Below, piece after piece: positions 21,742 to 37,485 of a stretch of 64,000 bases of DNA; the first letter of the stretch is position 1, and each line of letters begins with the position of its first letter. The notes beneath the pieces are model-generated. The model searched no databases. It saw only the letters and a list, made by a program, of their open reading frames with translations, and was not told where the DNA came from. The position numbers and the translations under genes are program-made. Source of the DNA: Tubulanus polymorphus. Its lineage: Eukaryota; Animalia; Nemertea. The stretch covers positions 5,146,001 to 5,210,000 of the forward strand of contig NC_134025.1 of NCBI RefSeq assembly GCF_964204645.1, in the 5' to 3' direction.

Positions 21742-24700
21742 ATGAATTTACAGGGTAAGCTTACAGTTTCCTGTCCCATTTAAACAGACCTGTGATGCAT
21801 TCATTGTTAATGCTTGATTCATAAATTTTGAAACAGATACAAAATCATGAAATGATATTTATATTTTAAGGTGTGGAATCTTGGAGAATCTCAATAGAAG
21901 ATCGCGCTAAACACGATGCACAATTTTTCAAATTGAAACCTATCGACGGTTTTATAACTGGTAGGTTTTACTGAATTATTTTTATTTATGTTCATGAAAA
22001 AAAAACATTATTATCAATATTGTGTTCTGTTGTAGGTGAACAAGCCAAGGGATTCTTCCTGCAGTCGGGGCTTCCTGCTCCAGTGCTAGGTCATATATGG
22101 TAAGTATATTGTAAATCATGGATTTTTATTAACTCATTTTATTAACTCAACCAAATATTTTCGTTCAACATCTTAGTCACAAAAACGAACTGTCAAAAAA
22201 TCTATTCTATTCAACAGGGGCCTGGCTGATATGAATGCCGATGGAAGAATGGATAACAAGGAGTTTTCCATAGCGATGTTTTTAATTCAGAAAAAACTCC
22301 AGGGGTTTGATTTGCCAAAAGCTCTGCCAGCAGGGGTTGTAGCGGACCCCTCTCCATCACATGTTCCAGCCATGGGATTTTCCTCAATGTCACAACCAGC
22401 ATCTATGATGCAAGGACCACCAGGTAAAAGTCAATACTGAATACATATATTGAAGCTCAATGATATAATGGCTTGCACTCAAGCGTACATGCATACTATA
22501 TATTATTATTATATACATTAGATTTATGATACTCACTGCCACATTCATATGCCTGATGATGTATTACACTCACAGAATCCTTTGCTTTCTTTCCTTGCAA
22601 TCAACTTGCATTGGTGATTTGCCTATATAGCCAGTTATAATACAGCTGGTGGTTATCCCAGCGTTTCTCCACCTCCATATTCAGCAGCTGTAGCATTATC
22701 AACTGCTCCTTCAGCTTCTAACAGTAAGTTCAATAAGCATGTTTTAATAATCAATACTCAGGACATATTATAGTGGAAAAGTTTCAACTTTGCGTTATTT
22801 TTTTTTTTCAGCTTCTGGCATAAATGTAGCTTCGCCTAAAGATGTCACTCGGTGAGAAAAAATCAAAATTAATACATATTGTCCACCGTTAATGGCTCTT
22901 ACTATTCCGCAATACTTCATCTTCTAAATGGTATGTTCTTTCAGAGGAAGGTCAGGGTCAGTGAGTGCAGAATGGGGTATTCCACACAGACTCAAATACA
23001 ACCAAATATTCAATAGTCATGATAGACTAAGAAGAGGATACCTACTTGGTGAGTAGTTTTCCATTTATGGTCTTAGGAATGAATTTTTTGCAGATATAAA
23101 CCTCCGTATTTGTATATTTCTTTGTAGGTTTGGAAGCAAAAAACATTCTAATGCAGACTGGCCTGCCTCATCAATTACTTGCACAAATATGGTATGTGAA
23201 GATGGCTCAATTTTTTATTTGTGTCATCATAACTACCTTCAAAATTACTGATTTACATGTGTTGTATTTTGTGCAGGAACCTGTCCGATATAGACAATGA
23301 TGGCAAATTGACTCAAGATGAGTTCTGTGTAGCAATGCATTTAGTCGACTGTGTTAGAATTGGTCAACCTTTACCTCAAACACTGCCACCAGATCTGATG
23401 CCACCTTCATACAGAAGAGACCGCAAAGCTAGTATAACCTCACAAGGCAGTCTCGCCCAACCTGTTCAATCCCAAGGTAAACAGAGGTTTTCTCAATTGA
23501 ATATTTTCAACCGAAATTGCATACATGATATGAGAGAATGCATTACATTTTTGAAATCTGTAGGGATTGTACAAAGTGATGTGATAATGCCTGGAGGTTT
23601 CAGCCAAAGTCCTGTTATGGAAATTGAAGCAATATCACCAGGTAAGAAAATGTAAGAAAGAAAATGGATTCCAACATTTATGAGCATTCTCAATCTATTT
23701 TACCTGTGTCAAATTCTGGTTTTCAGTTACATTTGAGGATAAAAGAAAGGAGAATTTCGAAAAAGGGCAAGCTGAATTAGAGAAGAGGAGGGCATTATTA
23801 AGAGAACAACAGAAGAAAGAGGAAGATGCAAGAATTGCGGCTGAAAAAGCAGAACAAGAAAAGAGGGAAAGGATCAGGTGTGTAATATACTAAAAGCTGG
23901 ATATTTGGTTAAGAAATTGGCAGTTGCATTTATAAAACATCGGTTTCATTCTCGGCAGACAAGAACAAGAACGGAAAAAGCAACAGGAACTCGACAAACT
24001 ACAAGAACGACAAAGACAGGCAGAAAAAGAGAAGGAAGAACAGAGAAGGAAGGCTTTAGAACAGAGAGAGGTAAATAAATCGTTATCCGAAATATTGGTG
24101 TCGTTTATATAAAGATATAGAACTAACAGACTCCTGTTTATTTCAGGCTGCCCGAAGAGAAATGGAACGACAGCGTATGTTGGAATGGGAGCGTCAAAGA
24201 ATGGAGCAGTTGAAAGCTGAGCGAAATCGAGAACAGGAACAAGTTTTAACGCTGAAAAATATGACCAGTAATATGGCTCATGAATTAGAAACTCTCGTAA
24301 GGATGACTTTCTGTCTATTTGGTTGATTTCATCAATTACACATTTGCTTTAATTAAATCTTTAAGATACAATAATTGCTTTAAACCAGTATGAGGGATTG
24401 AAAAAATGTTTGGAATTCTCTAATTTTAGGATAAGAAGAAACAGGATTTGACTGATATGATTGGTCAAGCGAGAAATGGTGTGACGGATATCACGACAGC
24501 CATCGAACGCATGAGACAATCACGAGACGTTAAATTAACCAGCATCGAACAGTTGCAAGGTGAAATGCAGAAATATAATCAAATCCTGCTTGAACATCAA
24601 AAAGAAATGGAAGAATTGAATACGAAAGCTCAAACCAGCACCCAAAGTAACCCTATCAGTAAGTGAAACAAAGTTTTGAAAATTTAATCTGGAATCCCTT

Positions 24701-27700
24701 GATATTGATGTGCTAAATCTTATCTGTTTCTCAATAGCCGATACGTATAAGACAGTGTTACACAGTCACGGAAATAAACAGCTATCTATACAGAGATTGA
24801 ATGTTCAACTCGAACAATTACAGAAAGAAACAGCTACAAAACTGGCTGAAATTGATAACAACAACTCTGAAATCAATGTGAGTTGATTTTATTAAGTTTG
24901 TTTAGTTGAGCATTCTTGTATTGTAGTGTTTTGATATGATTTTATTAAGTCAGCATATTATATATTGGCAAATTTCTGGCGACGGAATTTTATTAGACAA
25001 ATGCAACATATTGTTTTCTCCAGACGATGAAAAATGATATCAATCAAATTGAAAATGATATAAAGAAGCTGCAGATTGAATTGAGAAATAAGAAACTCGC
25101 TGTCAAACAACAGAAAGAAGAAGAAGAAAAGCAAAAGATTAGGTATGTAGTTACGCATAAGCATGATTACTGATTTGAATTCTTCAATAGTGTCTCCCAG
25201 TCAGGAGTAACTCGTGTTCTATATGTCTAATGCAGAGAGGAGGAAGAGAAAAAACAGCAAGAACAACCAGCTTGGTTAGATGCGTTTAATACAACCGATA
25301 TGTTTGGCTCATCGACAACTTCCACGGTGTTTAGTTCCACAAATGCAACTGCTCCCGCTTCTACAAACGCTGATCCATTCAACGATAAACAGGATTCACA
25401 AGATGGTTGGGCATTTTTCAGCAGTCAGAACGAAACAGTCGAAAATAAACCGGCTTCTAATGATATATGGGATTCGGCATTCGGCGACGCATCAACGGCT
25501 AATACTGCAGGTAAAACAATGTGTCACAGAGTCTAGTCCCTGAGTTGATTGTATAATTTATCAGAGTCCCTGAGACTACTTGAATGATTCCTTAAAAACT
25601 CCTTCTGAACCGAAAATGCTTTTAGAGGTGTTTGAACTCCTATAATCCTGATCTGTAGGGACCCTGTTATCCTCATCTGGCTGTCATATTTTAGCTGATG
25701 ATACAGCATTTTCATTCGGCAATACTGACGCTTTTGGAAATGGTAATGATCCGTTTGGTAAAACTGATGTATTCGCCACTAACGATGCATTCAATGCAAA
25801 CACCGCTGCATTAACGACAGCAATAACAACGACTTCCGAATCAAAATCAACTCAACGCGTCATGTACCGAACTCTGTTCCCTTTTGAAAGTCGACACAAC
25901 GATGAATTAACGTTGAATCCCGGTGATATAGTTATGGTAAGTAGATTAAACCCATTTCATAAATACTACAGGTACAGGTAATACTATTCTCCTATTATAG
26001 CATCTCGTGCAAGGGTTCGCATCAATGAAATCCCTTTAGCCTCGACTCCTTTGAATATAAAGATTGTTTCATTTTAGGTATCCGAGGACCAAAATGGTGC
26101 CGAACCTGGTTGGATGGGTGGAGAGTTGAATGGTAAAACTGGCTGGTTTCCTGCTGCGTATGTGGAGCGTGTTACAGATGATTTACCAGTATCAATAACA
26201 TTCAGTTCAGCTGCTGAATCTAATAATACTACTACCACTGATAATTCAAGTTTTAGTTTAGGGTAAGCTATCCTATAAATTATCTGAAATTCAGGCAACT
26301 GTGCACTGGTGTAATAACCGAAGGTGTAGTAAAGTTTTTTGATTTATTTACTGGGCTAGCTGTACATAGATCAATGGTGATGTTCTATAAAACAATTAAT
26401 TGATTGTCTCTTTCTTATATTAAGGGATGTTACGACTGCAGAATCAACTACTGATGAACTTAAATTGGAGACATCGGGCTCATTAACCATTAGTCAGTCG
26501 GAGTCTTCATCATTTACCACAGTTATACCAGCTGCCATCAATACTGCTCCATCTCCTACTCCTGGACTGGTTAGTCTTAAAACATCTCAACCATAGGATG
26601 TTTATCCGTATTGTATAATGTATGATAAAAATGTTATGAATTGCAGGGTCAGACAGCTCCTGATGGTCTCCAGGCTCAGGCGTTATACCCATGGCGTGCG
26701 AAGAAAGATAATCATTTAACATTCAACAAAGGCGATATTATTCTAGTCAGAGAACAACAAGACATGTGGTGGTCTGGTGAATTAAATGGAAAGGTACAGT
26801 CATTGTTTATTTCTATATTAGCGTTTTTTTGGAATGTCTTCGATGTAAACCATTATAAGATGGTTTCATTCTATCTTTACAGATTGGATGGTTCCCAAAA
26901 TCGTATGTAAAACTTGTGAGCTCTACACCAAAACAATCTAAGTTAGTATCGGGATCATTTTTCAGAATTTCAGTTGTTTAGTTTTTGATTTCTGTCCTGG
27001 ATTCATGGTAATTGTTTGTTGATTTCAGCTCAAGGTCCGATACTCCTGTGAACAGCGACAGGCCTGCCTCAATAAATTCAAATCCATCACCGATATCCCC
27101 TGAACAGTCAATTCAGCAATCTGGTGGTAAGACAAACTTATAGTCAGTAACTAAGCTCAATTTCATATCCAAAAGTACCTGTATGTAGATATTCTCACTA
27201 TATCTGATATTTAGAATACTACGTGGCTATGTACAACTATACTTCAACTGAGTCTGGTGATTTGGTATTCAACCAAGGTGACGTTATACAAGTGACAAAG
27301 ATGGACGGTGATTGGTGGACCGGAATCCTCAATGAAAAAGCAGGAATATTCCCAGCGAATTATGTTAAAAAAATGGAAGTTCAGGTAAATGGATCATATT
27401 TCAGATTATCAGCTTTGGCTTTTAAAATATGTAGTTCAGCTCTCTGTTGTTCAAGCATCAGTCATTACCTTCAAAAGAGCGATTTTAAGTCGGACTATGG
27501 GTTTAAGTGGATTGTTATGTCTCCTTTAAACGCTTTGCATAGATAAGGCAATGTCCGAAAACAAAAATTAATGCTCCTTAGTACGTCTTGTTATTGAATG
27601 AAATAGGAACATTTAAAGAAGTGTCTACAATATGATGAATATGATGGTGATGATACTTTGTTTCCATTAGAGGTATAAAAATCCAATCGGTTTCGAAACT

Positions 27701-30700
27701 AAAATTCTGATAACATTTTCTTCGAACACCAAATCGTTGCGCTTGTAACGATGGATGATTTCTGTTCCAAGGCAATATATTAAACTCCCCTAATTCTGTG
27801 TTAAGACTCAAAATGATCCTTCATAATCGATTTAACAGTACCACAGGTAGGCCCTATACATCTGTATATTCTTAGTCCAATATTGTGTGATGTAATGTAT
27901 ACCATATTTGGAATTTCAAGTCATTTTCCATAAGCAATTTCTATCATCCAGTGCATGAAAACCAACCTTAGGCATTTTGTCTATGTGCACATTATATACC
28001 TATACAAAATGCTTCCTCTCATTCGACGACTCGAAATTTTTTCTTTTAACTCTGTAATTTATGGCTTCATTTGTGCCCCATAAAATCTAAACTGAAATTT
28101 GCTTTCCAACCATGTTGACCCAGAACATAATTTGTTCAAGGAAATCCATCCTTATAAAACCTGGACTCAGTTTCATGTTTAAACTGATTCATGGCTTATA
28201 GAGAAACCAAATCATTTTATGGAAGTGGTCACTTGATCTTAACTATTCAACTAACGCATGTTTGTCTTCTGCATGATGTTTTCTTGGCCTCATCTTCGCT
28301 AACCAAACCGTGACTTGTACGTACCATATTTGCTTGCTAACAAAATACGCACTCGCTGTCAGAATAAACCCACAGAAACTTCAATAGCAGCAGCAGCATT
28401 ACCACTTCCGGAAGGACCGCCGCCAACGGATAACCAACTTGATCAAGTATGATGATAACTTATATATTATCTTATTCATCTAGCAACTATGTCTTAACTA
28501 GTAGTTAATTTTCAAATACACTTTAAAGTTCATCTACATGTTAAGTCTACTGTAGATAAACAGTGAACGTTTTACAAGATTTTCTTTCTCATATCATAAA
28601 CGACTATGAATGTACAGTACATACTACAAGTTTCATTTTGCACCATTAACTTAAGTAACAAAATAGGAAATGGTTTCAATCCTTATTTGCACATATTCAG
28701 TTCTTAAAATACCACTGTGTAGTCGTAGTTACCGTGCATGATAGCTTGTTGCTTTCTTTGCCCTATTGCACTGTTTATCAACTACAAAAATGTACCACCT
28801 TATTCTACAATCTTTAGTCAGATCTGAGATAATAGTAAGATTTGATGATACAACATATTTTCGGCACAGGATATGATGCTAATGTTGATGAATATGTGTT
28901 AGGTGAATGTTGATCTAGGTAGCCAACATGGAACTAATATATGTTTCTCCTCATTCTTCAGCCTGGTGTAAAATTATCTAAAAAACCTGGTATGTATTGC
29001 ATCCACTTCATATTCTACTTAATTGCCATCAAATCTATTTGAATTTTATGAATAGATTTACTTTATACCGAGTAGCGTATTTTCCATTGACCCTTTGATT
29101 ATTTCAGAAATAGCATCTGTGATAGCGGCCTATAATGCTACCGGACCCGAGCAGTTATCTTTATCTCCCGGTCAGCTTATTTCTGTTCGTAAAAAAAGTC
29201 CCAGTGGTTGGTGGGAAGGAGAATTACAGGTACATTATAATTTCATGCACTTATCGCAACCTTACCATGAATCATATTGTTTCAAATGCCATGAAAATGA
29301 TCGTCTACCTTTAGGCCAAAGGCCAGAAAAGACGGATAGGATGGTTTCCGGCGAATTATGTGAAATTACTCGGTTCTTCCAGTGCCAGATCTACCCCAGA
29401 TAATTCCTCACAAAGAAGCACTCCTAACCCTATGGTAATTGATTATCCTATATTTTTTAATGATTGTACTCGGCACACAGTGTTCTTCAACCAATAAATT
29501 ACAAGAAAGATAATTAATACAAGAAAGATTATCAATAAAGATTATTATTATATATTATTATAAGCTTCTTAGCTAGGTGTACGCTACTGAAACTCTACTT
29601 ACCGTACTTTTAGAACGATCAGAGAAGTTCAACACCACAAACTCAGCCCCCAGATCTACCAGCCGCCAGTTCAAGTAGTAAGTGTAAATTTCACCTACCA
29701 TTATGTTTGGCAAGTTTTGGCTTAAGAGGCAAAGACATCAGGATATTATTTATATCAATAGAATTGCTTGAATATAACTCAATACAAATCTTCCAAAAAT
29801 GTTCTATTGCCCCCTTAGGCCTCACTCAAAATTAAAATGTTATCCTTTTTTGTATGTTTGCAGAAGAACAGGTGGTAGCTCTATACTCATATTCTGCCCA
29901 ACATGATGATGAGCTTTCATTCCAAAAAGGCTCTGTTCTCAGTGTACTCGACAAAGAGGATCCTGACTGGTGGAAAGGTGAAGTGAATGGTACAACGGGA
30001 ATGTTTCCATCGAACTATGTGAAACCACTCAGCGAAGCTACAATGTCTCCACCTAGTACATGTGAGTAGTTCCTAAATAAATCCCTCAATATGAAATACA
30101 CAAACAATATGTTTGCTAACAACAGCCAGTAAGTAGTTCTTGATAGGTACAAGGTTGAAAAACCATGAAAGCCATATTATGTACATTTGCGCTGATAATT
30201 CACCATTGATATTTATCTTTTTCTTTCATTTCATCTATTATTAGGATTCATTCATTCGCGTGGAGACCTTCAGCTGACCCTTTATTAGGACTGCCTACTC
30301 TTCATCTTATGGGATACTTTGAATTTGATAGAAAAGCTACAAAAATTACGTTTAGCCATATTTGCTCAGATGATGCAAAATATCCATGAAATGTTGTCAA
30401 CATTGAGCTTGTCATTACTTCACTCTTCATCTGAACTTCACCACTTCACTATTATCACAAATGTTATTACCGCAAATTCTGCCAGTACGGTTTCAACCTC
30501 TGCATATTAGATTTGTGACTTACAACACTTTTCTCAGTATCACATATACTCATCTTGTTGATTTGGATTGTGTATATACGTAACTTCTCGCATAATTCAT
30601 GTTACTGTTATTATTAGGCAATATCTACTCATGTATTAAAATGGCTGTCTGCATATAATTAAACTACCTCTTGGCAGTGAATATAGTTAAGTATTTCAGC

Positions 30701-33700
30701 CTGCGTTAGAACAGTGTAGACACGGAGTAAGAAATGCTTTTTCTGTCTTCGAGGAAGCATTGTTTTTATAACACAGCTGATTTCATTTCAACTCATTTGT
30801 AATTATCTTTGTGCAACGCATGATTTTTTTTCACATAATTTTAGATACCGCACAATTTCCGTTACTTTCTGAGCAAATATGGTTTTTAAGAAGATTTTCA
30901 AATTTATCAGAATCGATCAGTATTTGGGCTTTTTCTCTTTATTTCTGTGATTCAGTACATACATTGAATTCATTTTTTTAAACTAACAAACTGCATGTTT
31001 TTCGACATTATTTATACTAATTTGATATAGTATTCAATTTACCTGCTTGGTAATCGCATTTAACAGTAATCATGAATTGAACATTGCTTCATTCAAACTG
31101 TTAAAAAGCCCAAATCGATCCATTAAAAGATTGTATTGCAGGAATGTGATTGAGAGGGATCGATGTACGCATGTCTACAGTAGTGGGTCAGAGATGAAGG
31201 CTCCGCAGGTCACTCAATATTTGTCTTCTCTGCTTCAATCATATCTCAATCAATATAATTAAATAAGCTGCTGTTATCTTGCGCCTTTCTAACCTACTCG
31301 ACCCACCACGATATGGCATTCATTCAATGTTCCCCTCACACATGTTCCTCGTGTTGCTTCTAAACCTATAGTTCCATCAGTTTGATAACATATAGCGTAA
31401 GCTTGGTTATAATAGGATCACAAAATAGTGAATATGTATGCGTGAATCATGACTATACATTGATATAGGGACGTTCTTAGTAGTATAAAAAACTTACAAC
31501 TCAAAAGAAATTTCCTATGCATATGATGAAATAGATTCTATAATATTATGCAGTGCGTCTAATGTGTTATATTGTGTTATAGAAGATGTCTGTACATGTT
31601 ATTGAGTGCATAGTACATGGTGTATATTACGATATATAGTCTGTTGTATTGTTTTATGAGTGTTTTACAATATGTTACCGCTGCACTTGAATCCAATCAG
31701 TATGTTTCAGTAGACAGTGGTATCGCACTGTAATGTCCCCAGTAAAGGAAAGGTATATTTCACTCAAAGCCCCTCGCATCATCCAAGAATATAGAAAGTT
31801 GCATGTAAGTATCTATAATATGAGACGTTCGAACCATCTTATATTGGAAAATCTTCTCAACCCCATATTATCACTGTTGTGGGTATGAAAACTCAACTTG
31901 CGCTAAGTGACGATACATGAACGGTAAAAGTTTCGAAGATATTTGGATTTCCGTTGAGATTAGAAATCACAAATGTGTATTGATTCCTCAATTCATACTG
32001 TCGCCCATTTACTGATGATGATGCTCATAGCTAACTTTTTCTGTATTCAGAGTACAGCTTCAACGTATTTGCATTTCAAAGGAATATACATACATGTATT
32101 AGCAATAGTGATTCATTATTCAGTTAAATGCATTCCTCATTTGTAACTTTGAACACTGGCATTTGTACATGTACTCGATGTTATATATGATTGTGGTAGT
32201 AAAATAAATGAAAAATAAAAGTATTATAAAAGAAATACGAATTAGTTACCCAGATATTTTGTGCCCATGAAGAAGTGAGGGAGATTGGTAGTCACCACCA
32301 CAAGTAATGGAAATCTAATAACTAGCTAGACAAATTAAATGATTAATGTAAGACTGGCTGGTAAAAGTTGTTGTGAAATGGTTTTGCTGTCTTGATCATT
32401 AGATGAACGACTTATTGAAGAGGAATGCAGCAGTGATGATAGCAGTTCGACGGGCACAGATATTGAGCTGGGTATATTCACTACCGGTACATAGAACATG
32501 TAGAAATTCATTTCCAAGGTTTTGGCTCTACAAAATCTATGATTAGTTTATTCATTTGATGACCAACCAAAGAAGTGAATAAAACAGATCAATGTAGAAA
32601 AGATACTATCAGGTCTTTAAACCTTCCGTAACTACAATTGCATGCATTAGTCTCTGTTACTCTGAAAAAATGTATGCCTGATGACTGAATTTCTATAATG
32701 GAGGTATTTTCACTAGACAGATAGGCACACTTAGAATGACTACTACCGGTAATTAGGTAACATCTATCTTATTACTTGGTAAATGGAACACCAGTGTCTC
32801 TTAGGAAGAAAGTAGCAAAAGCACCTTTTCAAGATCTGGATCCACATTTTAAAGATGGTCACATGGCAGCATGTAAATTACCTGTATGATTGAAAACCCA
32901 TAGTATGTAGTGAAAGTATCTTAATGAATTACAGGGGCTACGGATCCAACTGTTTTCGCGATGACCTCTCCAGAAGAGCGTAAAAGGCAAAACTACATCC
33001 ATGAATTGATAAATACTGAGGAAACATACATGTCTGACATGTCAATAGTAATGGAAGTAAGCAACGACAAATATTCAGAAATTTGGGTGTATTTTTTCGT
33101 CAGTGCTCCTTAAGGCCTGGATCTACATTCTTTTTATTTCTGACAGATATTTCATCAACCAATGTTGGAGAGTAAGGTATTATCTCAAGAGGAACTGCAA
33201 CAGATCTTTGTAAATTGGGAAGAACTTATTGTCTGCAATACAAAACTGTTGAAGTAAGTTGATTATTTTTAAACAAATAGATCATACCATGTACTTAAAA
33301 ACAATACTGATGTACATAGAAATGACATAAATGATGTATTTCTTGCAGAGCATTGCGTGTTAGGAAAAAGATGAGCGGTGAAGGTCAAATTATCCCTATT
33401 ATTGGTGATATACTGGTTGAGAATGTGAGTTTCAAGTAATAATCAATCTGATAAACTGCAATTTCTGATTTAGCCCAGAAAAGTTGAAAAAGAGGATGCT
33501 TTATGCCAACAAGCCAAAATTTTCTTCTGTCATATAACATCATCCTAAATAATCTGATAATTTTTCACTATTTTTCAGCTTCCCCACTTGACTGCATACA
33601 TTAGATTCTGTAGTTGTCAGCTAAAAGCTGGCAAACTTATACAGCATAAAACAGATGAAGGATCTGAATTTAAAGAATTAGCAAAGGTAAAGTACAGTTT

Positions 33701-36700
33701 CTACGAAAGTGTAGAGAAAGTTCAAATGAGAGAATGCATCAACATACATACTGGTATGTACATTTATCTACAGAGATGTGCTCAGGATTCAAGAACCAAA
33801 GGCATGCCACTGAGCAGTTTCCTTCTGAAACCAATGCAACGAATAACAAAATATCCTTTAATGATCTCAAAGGTAATAAAATCTGACACGATCTATATAT
33901 ATATCATATTTCTAGTATTGCCTTTACTCTGTACTACTGAAGTTCTATAATTTCCTTTTTTTCTAGATTTTAGAGTATACTCCAGATAATCACCCTGATC
34001 ATCAGAATCTTGTCGATGCCCTTGCCAGAGCGGAAGAACTTTGTAATCAAGTCAATGAAGGAGTGCGCGAGCAAGAACATTCTGATAAATTGGAATGGAT
34101 ACAGACACATGTTATATGTGAAGGCCTTTCCGAGGTTAGTGACAATTTGAAATTCTAATAATTGTGTATTGAAATTTCATATATCTTAAAGCACTCTTTG
34201 GTTTTCAGAAACTAACATTTAACTCTGTCACAAATTGTCTTGGACCAAGGAAGTTTCTTCATATTGGCACTTTGTTTAAAGTGAGTAATGCTAATTATGT
34301 TGCATGAAAAAGCTTGATGAAGTATACATGTATTTCGATCATTGATTTTTCTTATTGCAGACAAAGAGTGGAAAAGAATTGGTAGCATTTCTGTTCAATG
34401 ATTTCTTGTTATTGACATTTCCATCAAAACCATTGCATAGTATGAATTACCGGTTCAATTTCGATCCTGAATGTCGTGTTATCTTCAAAATGTATAAAAA
34501 TGTAAGTCACCAATTTTACCCCAAATACAAACCTGTATGAAGCTGTCCACTATTCGGAACATGTATGATTGTTTTTGCAGCCAATTTTCTTGAATGAAAT
34601 TATGGTAAAAATGTTGAGTGTAGATCAAGAATCCGACAATAATAAGTGCAATGATCAGTTTCAAGTTTCACATATTGATCGAGTTTACAATATGAAAGCC
34701 ATCTCCAGTAGTGATTGGTAAGTATCATTATTGCAGCATTCACAAAAGTTCAATTCCATGAACATTACAGAAAAGGAAACTACATGACCCAATGTGTGTG
34801 TGTATGTATGTACCGGTATGTATATATGTATGCACGTATGTATTTTATCACATTGCAGTAACAATTGGGTGAAAAGAATTGAGGAAGCTTCGAAAGATTA
34901 TCTGAATACAGAAAGAAAACGAAGAGAAAGGGCTCATTCTTGTAAGTATTTTAATTTATCATTCTACTAGAAACTAAATGTCTCGAATACAAATCCATGC
35001 AGAATATTCCTTAGTGTAAACACATTTTCATTATACATGCATTTATAATTTCTATAGTTTGATAAATGGAGGTAGTTTATATCATACATTATATATATAT
35101 ATATAAGTTATGTGCACATGTACATTATGTGTACATGACCCAAAATCAGTGTATCGTCTATGTAAGTAAACCTGCCCTTCATAATCTAGAAATATCTAAT
35201 TAAACATGATCGATAACCTAGCAGATATCCTCATATAATTTTTTTTTCTTTGTTCCTGTTTTGTTGCTAGAGTTTGTTAAAGTCTTCAATTTTTCTGCAT
35301 GTGTGTATCTACATAACTACTTGCTGCATGTTGAGCTTCATGTCAGAACCTTGTCCAGTTTTGCTTTAAAGAGTTCTGATAAAAGAAATGTATGGCGAGA
35401 AATAACAATGTGAACTTAAAATATTGTATATAATATACAGTAAGGAGTTGTGCAGGGGATGGTCGTCTGATGATAGTCATTGTTGAAGGGAACAACCTTA
35501 TTATTGGTTGTAAGGGTAAGGAGATACATTATGTACAGATGGTTGTAGTTATCTCAAAAATAACTTGTCAGGTGCTTAATGGTGCATGTTTTTTTCAATG
35601 CTACACCATGAATGTCCTGTTTCTCATGGAATATATTTTGAAAATCTCACTTATTGTTTGCAAATATCTCTTATTTCATCTGGTGGTTCTTAATTGATAT
35701 TCATTATATCAATGATTTATAAGTCTATAATAAGTTTATAATGAATTTTTGATGATATTGGTATGGGATATCTTAAAACTTTTTTTTCAAAATATAATCC
35801 ATTCCTAGCCTACCTTTTACTATTCTGCCTTTGGCACCAGGTGATAACTGAAGGAAAGGCCAAGATTTTTCTATATTTTGTGTAACTTTGTGTTTAGTGT
35901 CTGCAGTGAAAGGTGTTGGGCGACTTCTAGTCATTGTTCTTGAAGGGCAAAATCTAATAGCTAGCGATGTATATGGTAAGGCTATGTTTATTATACAGGC
36001 GGTGTTTATTATTGGTATTTTCACTGATCACAAATCACTCTACAGAAGTTTCTAATCATCACAATCATTTAGTTGTCTAAACATCCTATATTAACAAGTA
36101 TAAATTTACATTTACGCATATAACAAACTTCTTTGCTAGTTTCATACCAAAATGTTCTTTTGTTATTCCTACTTGATGCACATTTTATCACCTAACTCAT
36201 AGACGATCCCATACTTGATTGATTTCAATATATTAATATGAAAAGGATGGATAGATAATGGTGTAAATCCAACAGGAACTTGCCCACTGATATTGGCAAA
36301 TACACCAATTGTGGCCCACTAATCAACCTCACATGTCATTCCATTAGACCGCACATGTTTCTAATTGTCACACATCAAATCTACACCAAACCACTGTTGA
36401 AGTAGATCTAAAAAATCATCACTGCATGTTTTTATCATCAACCATTGATCACTAATCACATCCTTCTCTCTGTCTTCTATGATGCATAGTACGCAGCATA
36501 CCAGCGGTGGGCCGACTTCTTGTGGTGGTTTTGGAGGGAGTAGATCTTGTCCCTAGCCTGTCTGATGTATCTGGTATGGTCGGTTTCCAATACTCAGCAT
36601 GCTGTCATATGTATTAAGTACAGAAGATATACATATACGTTGATACGTTTAATTTTGATTACAGAATACATAAACATTATTGTATCTTGTAAAATAGCCC

Positions 36701-37485
36701 CCCCCCCCTTGTCTACTGTTTATGTATTTTATGCGCTATTACAAGTATTTCCAAAATCAAAATTTACAAAATTCAGGTACATGTGAATGTACCAGTCAGA
36801 CCCTTCTTGTAATTACATGGTACTTGAAATAACCTACCTGCTTATAAAAACACTGTCCTATTTCTTATTCACTTCATTTCAATCCTACTCTACTAAATAA
36901 TAAGCATGATTATCTACTCTCCAATTCCTTCTTATCTATTATGGTACTGTAAATATGAAATGATGCTAAGCTAATTTTGCTGAATCTACTGTATCCACAC
37001 ATATTTACAAATGAATATGATGTTGTAGGAAAAAGTGATCCATATTGCGAGGTGAGCATGGGCTCTCAAGAACACAAAACAAAGGTGCTTATTGGTACTT
37101 TGAATCCGAAATGGAATTCGTCGATGCAGTTTACAATAAAGGATGTGCAGCAGGATGTATTATGTATAACTGTGTATGATAGAGATTTGTTTACACCAAA
37201 TGGTATGAAAATATGAATTAAAAATAATTTTGAAAATATGAATTAAAGGATACCATACATTGTCCTTACTCAACTCTCAATTATTGATGAAATAACAAAG
37301 TGCACTTCTACCAATAATGCGTGTATTTTTCAGATTTCTTGGGTAGAACTGAAATTCGTGTTCACGACATTCTTTCTGAAACGAGGGCAAAAAGAGGTCC
37401 AATCACGAAGCGCATGCAGCTATTAGAAGTGGAATCAGGAGAAGTTATAGTCAAATTAGACCTACAGTTGTATGGCAATAAATAG
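21742..37485 (+). CDS. ITSN: intersectin, long isoform (2 EH, coiled coil, 5 SH3, DH, PH, C2)
   Basis: EH ([28 protein letters not shown]; [19 protein letters not shown]), [21 protein letters not shown] coiled coil, five SH3 (e.g. [19 protein letters not shown]; [14 protein letters not shown]), DH ([16 protein letters not shown]; [17 protein letters not shown]), PH (FLFNDFLL), C2 ([13 protein letters not shown]...VKLDLQLY). Confidence 0.96.
28363..28446 (+). other. candidate cassette exon of intersectin between SH3C and SH3D
   Basis: 84 nt, CAG acceptor and GTATGA donor, phase 0-0 like its neighbours, encodes [28 protein letters not shown]; lies in an unusually long intron. Confidence 0.65.
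30245..32230 (+). other. alternative terminal exon and long 3' UTR of the short intersectin isoform
   Basis: Pyrimidine-rich acceptor ending at 30244; the upstream exon ends in phase-1 T (30061), so T+GA forms the stop; AATAAA signals near 32203 and 32214. Confidence 0.75.
35441..35515 (+). other. intersectin C2 alternative exon A (75 nt)
   Basis: CAG|...|GTAAG, phase 1-1, encodes [26 protein letters not shown]. Confidence 0.75.
35898..35975 (+). other. intersectin C2 alternative exon B (78 nt; 69 nt if the acceptor at 35906 is used)
   Basis: TAG|...|GTAAG, phase 1-1, encodes [27 protein letters not shown]. Confidence 0.85.
36490..36573 (+). other. intersectin C2 alternative exon C (84 nt)
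   Basis: TAG|...|GTATG, upstream CACTAAT branch-like motif and pyrimidine tract, phase 1-1, encodes [29 protein letters not shown]. Confidence 0.85.

Follow-up and report, generated by a model that had tools for sequence, protein, structure and literature searches.

Three tandem exons encoding calcium loop 1 of the intersectin C2 domain in the nemertean Tubulanus polymorphus and the evidence for their alternative use

A stretch of 64,000 nucleotides from the nemertean Tubulanus polymorphus (contig NC_134025.1, positions 5,146,001 to 5,210,000, forward strand; referred to here as the window, in whose own numbering all positions are given) contains a gene for the long form of intersectin (intersectin-L), an endocytic scaffold that also acts as guanine nucleotide exchange factor (GEF) for Cdc42. 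In this gene, strand 1 of the C2 domain and the first of its calcium loops (loop 1) are encoded three times over, by the tandem-duplicated exons A, B and C. A first-pass annotation of the window, made from the letters alone, had proposed strict mutual exclusion that tunes or disables Ca2+/lipid sensing. The analysis described below indicates that the loops are very probably used as alternatives. On balance, it is probable that regulated splicing chooses the loop-1 copy, B being predicted to give a five-aspartate Ca2+/lipid site, and A and C sites that are weaker or differently shaped. Strict exclusion of the copies is doubtful.

Three homologous exons and the calcium ligands of the C2 domain

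The gene was identified through the downstream constant exon D, whose product is 100% identical to an intersectin-1-like protein of the same species, and through the Pfam domains of the matched protein (EH, SH3, RhoGEF, PH and C2), which are those of the long form; the first-pass annotation had named it correctly. Exons A, B and C are adjacent and homologous, and each is preceded by AG, followed by GT, a multiple of three in length and of phase 1-1 (Table 1). The frame is open from the upstream constant exon U to the stop codon for every single and multiple combination of the three. A profile built from 55 exon units of other species, Tubulanus rows excluded, was searched against the 2,885 six-frame segments of the window and found only C (E = 1.1e-10), B (5.6e-10) and A (6.7e-4), the next-best segment having an E-value of 0.94. 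The positions, splice sites, phase and peptides first assigned to the three exons were thus reproduced. At its end (35509-35515) exon A carries a tandem GTAAGG GTAAGG, and use of the upstream donor with exon D would create a stop. Two elements not included in the first-pass annotation lie before A, where one region holds two acceptors: that at 35058 leads to a phenylalanine codon followed by a stop, and so to a DH-PH protein without C2, and that at 35108 opens a cysteine-rich exon of 18 residues (35108-35161), termed E0.

Table 1. Features of the intersectin-L gene and of its loop-1 exon cluster (window positions)
Feature	Position	Strand	Description
Intersectin-L gene (EH-EH-coiled coil-5xSH3-DH-PH-C2)	21742..37485	+	45 coding exons, RefSeq model X1
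Constant upstream exon U	34859..34941	+	Closes the C-terminal helix of PH (..RAHS); donor of phase 1; joints start from 34941
Alternative acceptor	35058..35161	+	35058 gives F-stop, C2-less RefSeq model X9; 3' boundary provisional
Exon E0	35108..35161	+	54 nucleotides, in-frame, non-homologous; joined to C in RefSeq model X2
UGCAUG site before A	35296..35301	+	Rbfox-type; motif match
UGCAUG site before A	35325..35330	+	Motif match
Exon A	35441..35515	+	75 nucleotides; strand 1 + loop 1, without first Asp, loop one residue short
UGCAUG site after A	35583..35588	+	Motif match
Exon B	35898..35975	+	78 nucleotides; strand 1 + loop 1, canonical L-x3-D-x2-G; U-B-D in a single contig
UGCAUG site before C	36423..36428	+	Motif match
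Exon C	36490..36573	+	84 nucleotides; strand 1 + loop 1, with two extra residues; C-D joint
Constant exon D	37029..37202	+	GKSDPY (second Asp) through loop 3 (third and fourth Asp)
Final coding exon	37334..37485	+	From fifth Asp to stop

The remaining calcium ligands come, as had been proposed, from the constant exons, which provide SDPY and D-x-D-x5-D in register with the C2A domain of synaptotagmin-1 (through alignment of an oyster orthologue). For comparison, 383 proteins were reduced to 72 species or genus labels with a parsed loop-1 unit, only five vertebrate rows being labelled; these labels rest on protein models, not on genome scans. In 63 of 70 labels, ligands 2 to 5 are all aspartate; the only ligand that varies is thus the one encoded by the duplicated exon. 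In the five vertebrate labels these ligands are N, E, D and D, and human ITSN2 lacks the first aspartate and has SNPY at the second ligand. The first aspartate matters for Ca2+-dependent lipid binding. In the B form it joins the constant aspartates to give five in canonical spacing, a full ligand set that aligns with synaptotagmin-1 C2A, as the first-pass annotation had read it. This spacing is found neither with A, which has no loop-1 aspartate, nor with C, in which the aspartate lies in a loop two residues longer; the claim that C keeps the aspartate is not borne out, the Lineus orthologue having an asparagine at the same place. A real difference in Ca2+ or lipid binding between the variants appears probable.

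It had also been argued that only one copy fits the fold and that inclusion must therefore be exclusive. In an AlphaFold model of a PH-B-C-C2 protein, C forms strand 1, B is a low-confidence coil, and the C2 sandwich is intact (TM score 0.97, root-mean-square deviation 0.9 and 56% identity against human ITSN2, PDB 3JZY). The alignment behind this model was biased to C, on which 59 of the 60 rows occupying a single copy lay; a repeat with 22 double-copy rows only gave the same arrangement at lower confidence (mean predicted local distance difference test score 72.7). The part of the argument that gives strand 1 to one copy stands, but since B+C is predicted to leave the C2 domain intact, the fold does not force exclusion. 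According to these models, the last copy included would set the loop.

Splice joints, transcript models and possible control of the choice

Two sequencing runs from two studies, X5 and X2, were taken as RNA solely on the basis of contigs that skip GT-AG introns. Such contigs show presence only, as rare forms are dropped and depths cannot rank exons, and all joints given here are those among the contigs listed. Run X5 provides one contig joining U-B-D and another joining C, D and the last exon. Run X2 provides the joints U-A, U-B, B-D and C-D as well as two flanking constitutive joints, so that B-D and C-D are present in both studies. The use of B alone is therefore shown in RNA, and A is known at its acceptor only and C at its donor only. 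The first-pass annotation had proposed to look for joints from U into each copy and from each copy into D, and for the absence of joints between copies: U-A, U-B, B-D and C-D were found, and neither A-D and U-C nor A-B, B-C, A-C and E0-C are among the contigs listed from the two runs. A as a complete spliced alternative is consequently not borne out, there being no A-D joint listed and no A in the nine RefSeq models. One contig of run X2 begins with 36 letters that do not map, in front of 35115, as would be expected from a joint between U and E0.

In run X2 the B-C intron and the C-D intron are each spanned in full by single contigs, whereas the constitutive introns next to them are crossed by joints. 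Splicing of the cluster introns thus seems to be slow, and a transcript that reads through any one of them meets a stop. In DNA run X1, none of 17 variant sites falls in A, B or C (2.3 expected, p = 0.10), which is uninformative.

The nine Tubulanus RefSeq models comprise five with B and C, two with B alone, one with E0 and C, and one that stops before the C2 domain through the acceptor at 35058. RefSeq often shows double-inclusion models and omits the third Tubulanus exon. Among the labels with more than one variant, 9 of 29 have single-copy models only, including Lineus longissimus (12 of 12 models, with three single-exon variants) and amphioxus (18 of 18), whose models X1 and X2 have an equal length of 1932 residues, one with and one without the aspartate. 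Among proteins from Logan, those of taxa with the pair (mostly oysters) that reach from U to D have one copy in seven of seven cases. Models without a C2 domain that end at the same junction occur in the scorpion Centruroides (X6) and the oyster Ostrea (X7).

Splice-site scores were ranked against the 42 other introns of the gene. The acceptors of A, B and C score above only 5, 4 and 0 of these, respectively, that of C being the weakest in the gene, and their donors are ordinary (above 20, 36 and 22 of 42). Weak acceptors beside ordinary donors point to the 3' splice sites as the place of the choice. Two modes of enforcing exclusion were rejected: distant branch points, as in OGDH, because the AG-free zones are only 39, 31 and 82 nucleotides long in introns of 382-514 nucleotides, and frame shifts, because every combination of A, B and C stays in frame. 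A scan of this one genome for docking and selector elements gave 55 inverted repeats, of which the 25 longest show no pairing in common.

The hexamer UGCAUG, which we take to be an Rbfox-type motif, occurs four times in the cluster introns against a shuffled mean of 0.75 (p = 0.006). Of the seven sites in other introns, six either neighbour other alternative exons or fall within the long intron that leads up to the DH region. Three (27952, 28270 and 28735) are in the introns around two cassette exons between SH3 domains (27607-27672 and 28363-28446), which are skipped singly or together in RefSeq models X3, X5, X7 and X8. Three others are in the longest intron of the gene (30062-32934; 2,873 nucleotides), which directly precedes the DH region; its read-through gives C-E-stop, the likely end of a short isoform. 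The Nova-type motif YCAY is not enriched in the cluster introns (40 against a shuffled mean of 43.4, p = 0.81). The B-C intron tops 124 tiles by raw YCAY count, and its best 50-nucleotide window has p = 0.17; clustering was not accepted.

Copies in other animals

At least two variants occur in 29 of the 72 labels, namely 21 molluscs, 2 nemerteans, Lingula, Paralvinella, 3 chelicerates and amphioxus. This count is itself at least 29, since the counting pattern missed second variants in Mytilus galloprovincialis and Limulus and two labels entirely; variants were taken from at most 15 members per cluster, so single-variant labels have at least one copy. No second variant was seen in the protein models of 9 cnidarian, 6 echinoderm, 2 hemichordate and 5 vertebrate labels, among the members listed. 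In all 26 non-chelicerate labels with several variants (21 of them molluscs), L-x3-D-x2-G is present in exactly one copy; the three chelicerate labels have two copies and the first aspartate in neither. The copy with the aspartate is upstream in nemerteans (Tubulanus) and Lingula, and downstream in molluscs and Paralvinella, the order in relatives being taken from double-inclusion models. Lineus has a B-like variant with the aspartate, a C-like variant with the same two-residue longer loop, and a third that starts with D-G-R-L, as does A; this start is in none of the other 55 units.

In a tree of 57 rows, the upstream copies of lophotrochozoans fall on a single branch (Shimodaira-Hasegawa-like approximate likelihood ratio test 88.9, bootstrap 75), the C exons of Tubulanus and Lineus pair (94.4/96), the amphioxus copies stand together (87.6/85), and A is reliably grouped with nothing. 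The tree does not establish that A is orthologous to the third exon of Lineus, or the chelicerate and annelid pairs to B and C. A 27-row tree was made with the aspartate column removed and with A, the Lineus third exon and the annelid, chelicerate and amphioxus rows excluded; 4 of its 12 upstream rows were assigned by likeness. On it, a single change separates upstream from downstream copies, against a mean of 8.2 after shuffling, where none of 500 shuffles came as low, and one column splits them as I against V/L (12 of 12 and 12 of 12). Given this split, the upstream branch and the amphioxus pairing, reciprocal loss of the aspartate after one lophotrochozoan duplication, with a separate duplication in amphioxus, is the likeliest history suggested by the sequences. 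The expectation that the alternatives would be conserved in relatives is borne out for the B and C types across nemerteans, Lingula and molluscs, and more weakly for A.

The ancestral animal intersectin-L may even have had a five-aspartate Ca2+ sensor as its C2 domain, turned on or off from cell to cell by duplicated loop-1 exons under a rule that the last exon wins, for more than half a billion years in lophotrochozoans and separately in amphioxus, the aspartate staying throughout in just one copy, though not the same one in every phylum, with vertebrates fixed in the off state. This broader history is speculative and, as it stands, less likely than not to be right in full; if true, control by Ca2+ of an endocytic scaffold that is a Cdc42 GEF would be an ancestral trait, selected by splicing and lost in vertebrates.

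Further variation was noted in two groups. Four Dreissena proteins (P0250, P0251, P0367 and P0371) carry eight additional residues in loop 1, inserted behind one or the other copy, so that loop-1 splicing has one more layer there. Copepod-like proteins fall into two very different versions of strand 1 and loop 1 (P0095 and P0101 against P0096, P0099 and P0100), and crustaceans may thus have a pair.

Competing explanations and known systems

In the favoured explanation, regulated alternative splicing would select the copy joined to exon D, so that B gives the full five-aspartate Ca2+/lipid site and A and C give weakened or re-shaped ones. The choice would be made at the weak 3' splice sites, perhaps with Rbfox-type factors, and exclusion would be usual but leaky. 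Where two copies are retained, strand 1 and the loop would be supplied by the last, and the first would become a PH-C2 linker.

Several findings weigh against this explanation. B and C are joined in five of the eight C2-bearing Tubulanus models, no model has A or a U-C joint, and double-inclusion models occur in 20 of the 29 multi-variant labels. The C contigs listed enter C from unspliced intron (36463 in run X5, 35947-36574 in run X2), and a stop lies 26 codons past B when the B-C intron is read through, so some C-D joints may come from unproductive or unfinished RNA. UGCAUG also occurs seven times in other introns (0.83/kb against 2.16/kb in the cluster). Exon A is the most diverged copy, is identical to the Lineus third exon at only 8 of 24 positions, and is not grouped with it in the tree. 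Echinoderms and chelicerates keep ligands 2 to 5 without any first aspartate, so, judging from these sequences, Ca2+ binding might survive its loss; in molluscs, many upstream copies counted as lacking the aspartate have an acidic residue one place later. Support in the 27-row tree is low (29/67), and a clade of aspartate-positive copies is not rejected (approximately unbiased test, p-AU 0.058).

The strictest alternative is a mutually exclusive cassette in which a dedicated mechanism admits one of A, B and C per mRNA and the B+C models are annotation chaining or noise. It would account for the lack of A-B, B-C and A-C joints among contigs that record presence only, for the labels with single-copy models only, Lineus and amphioxus among them, and for a B-C intron spanned unspliced, as if B-C splicing were slow. 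Against it, all exon combinations are in frame, the short AG-free zones exclude a distant branch point and permit joining of the copies, and no docking or selector pairing emerged from the repeats scanned. With B+C in most of the C2-bearing models as well, the strict exclusion originally proposed is not established, and this alternative is unlikely. A quite improbable one holds that only B, and perhaps C, makes protein, while A, E0 and retained introns are unproductive routes that lower the amount of full-length or C2-bearing intersectin-L. The missing A-D joint and the absence of A from the models are consistent with it, as are the stop-giving acceptor of model X9, the C2-less scorpion and oyster models, and the contigs that span cluster introns whose read-through stops. 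Yet A keeps its frame, its strand-1 pattern and an ordinary donor, though the introns on either side of it have no long repeat in common with the introns around B or C, and Lineus uses a third exon with the D-G-R-L start. Least probable, and very unlikely, is that the variants differ in lipid or protein partner or in PH-C2 spacing and not in Ca2+ sensing, the aspartate pattern being a by-product. The chelicerate pairs without a first aspartate would fit, as would the variable length of the exon N-termini and the linker lengthened by double inclusion; the single canonical copy in every non-chelicerate multi-variant label, its opposite placement across phyla and the apparently separate amphioxus duplication argue against this reading.

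A review of intersectin splice variants describes effects on EH, SH3 and DH domains and, in the part used, names none for C2 (PMC3645719); splicing is not treated in the portion of PMC4824007 used, and ITSN is absent from the main text of PMC9741552 as far as used. No description of an intersectin loop-1 exon cluster was found in the open literature, supplements and subscription papers lying outside the scope, in agreement with the first-pass annotation. Another review calls the intersectin C2 calcium-binding and a candidate link between exo- and endocytosis (PMC3753573); the vertebrate C2 domains (P0264-P0292 and 3JZY), without the first aspartate and with asparagine at the second ligand, are at odds with that description. 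The vertebrate domain lacks two of the five canonical aspartate ligands, while in most invertebrates four ligands are constant and the fifth is probably toggled through splicing. Human intersectin-1 and -2 long forms carry the orthologous C2 domain, in a single variant in the vertebrate rows examined. The role of the domain can be tested directly on the on/off variants that nature provides in oysters, Aplysia-type gastropods, octopus and amphioxus.

The cluster is an old set of alternative exons, undescribed for intersectin, and duplicated exons that alter calcium binding or C2 domains are already known elsewhere. In ACTN1 and ACTN4, duplicated EF-hand exons keep the Ca2+-binding residues in one copy only (PMC9741552); these are vertebrate EF-hands, whereas the intersectin case concerns a C2 domain. 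Exons 4a and 4b of OGDH are ancient duplicates that give Ca2+-sensitive and -insensitive isoforms through an aspartate motif (PMC7969005). Here too the domain is not a C2, and exclusion is achieved by distant branch points, for which the intersectin cluster has no room. The dysferlin variants C2A and C2Av1 arise from alternative first exons, not from an internal cassette. Of these two splice forms of a single C2 domain, only one depends on Ca2+ (PMC3898210; PDB 4IQH); they belong to a vertebrate ferlin with measured binding, whereas the intersectin variants are known from sequence. Of the same kind are invertebrate Syt1, Syt34 and Esyt2, in which mutually exclusive exons alter C2 domains (Craxton, 2010; PMC2823689). 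As in intersectin, homologous alternative exons that change a C2 have arisen repeatedly in invertebrates, and the present cluster adds an apparently convergent case to these pairs. On the other hand, those proteins are membrane-anchored sensors and tethers, and intersectin is a soluble endocytic scaffold and Cdc42 GEF with three copies, in which the swapped piece carries the one variable Ca2+ ligand.
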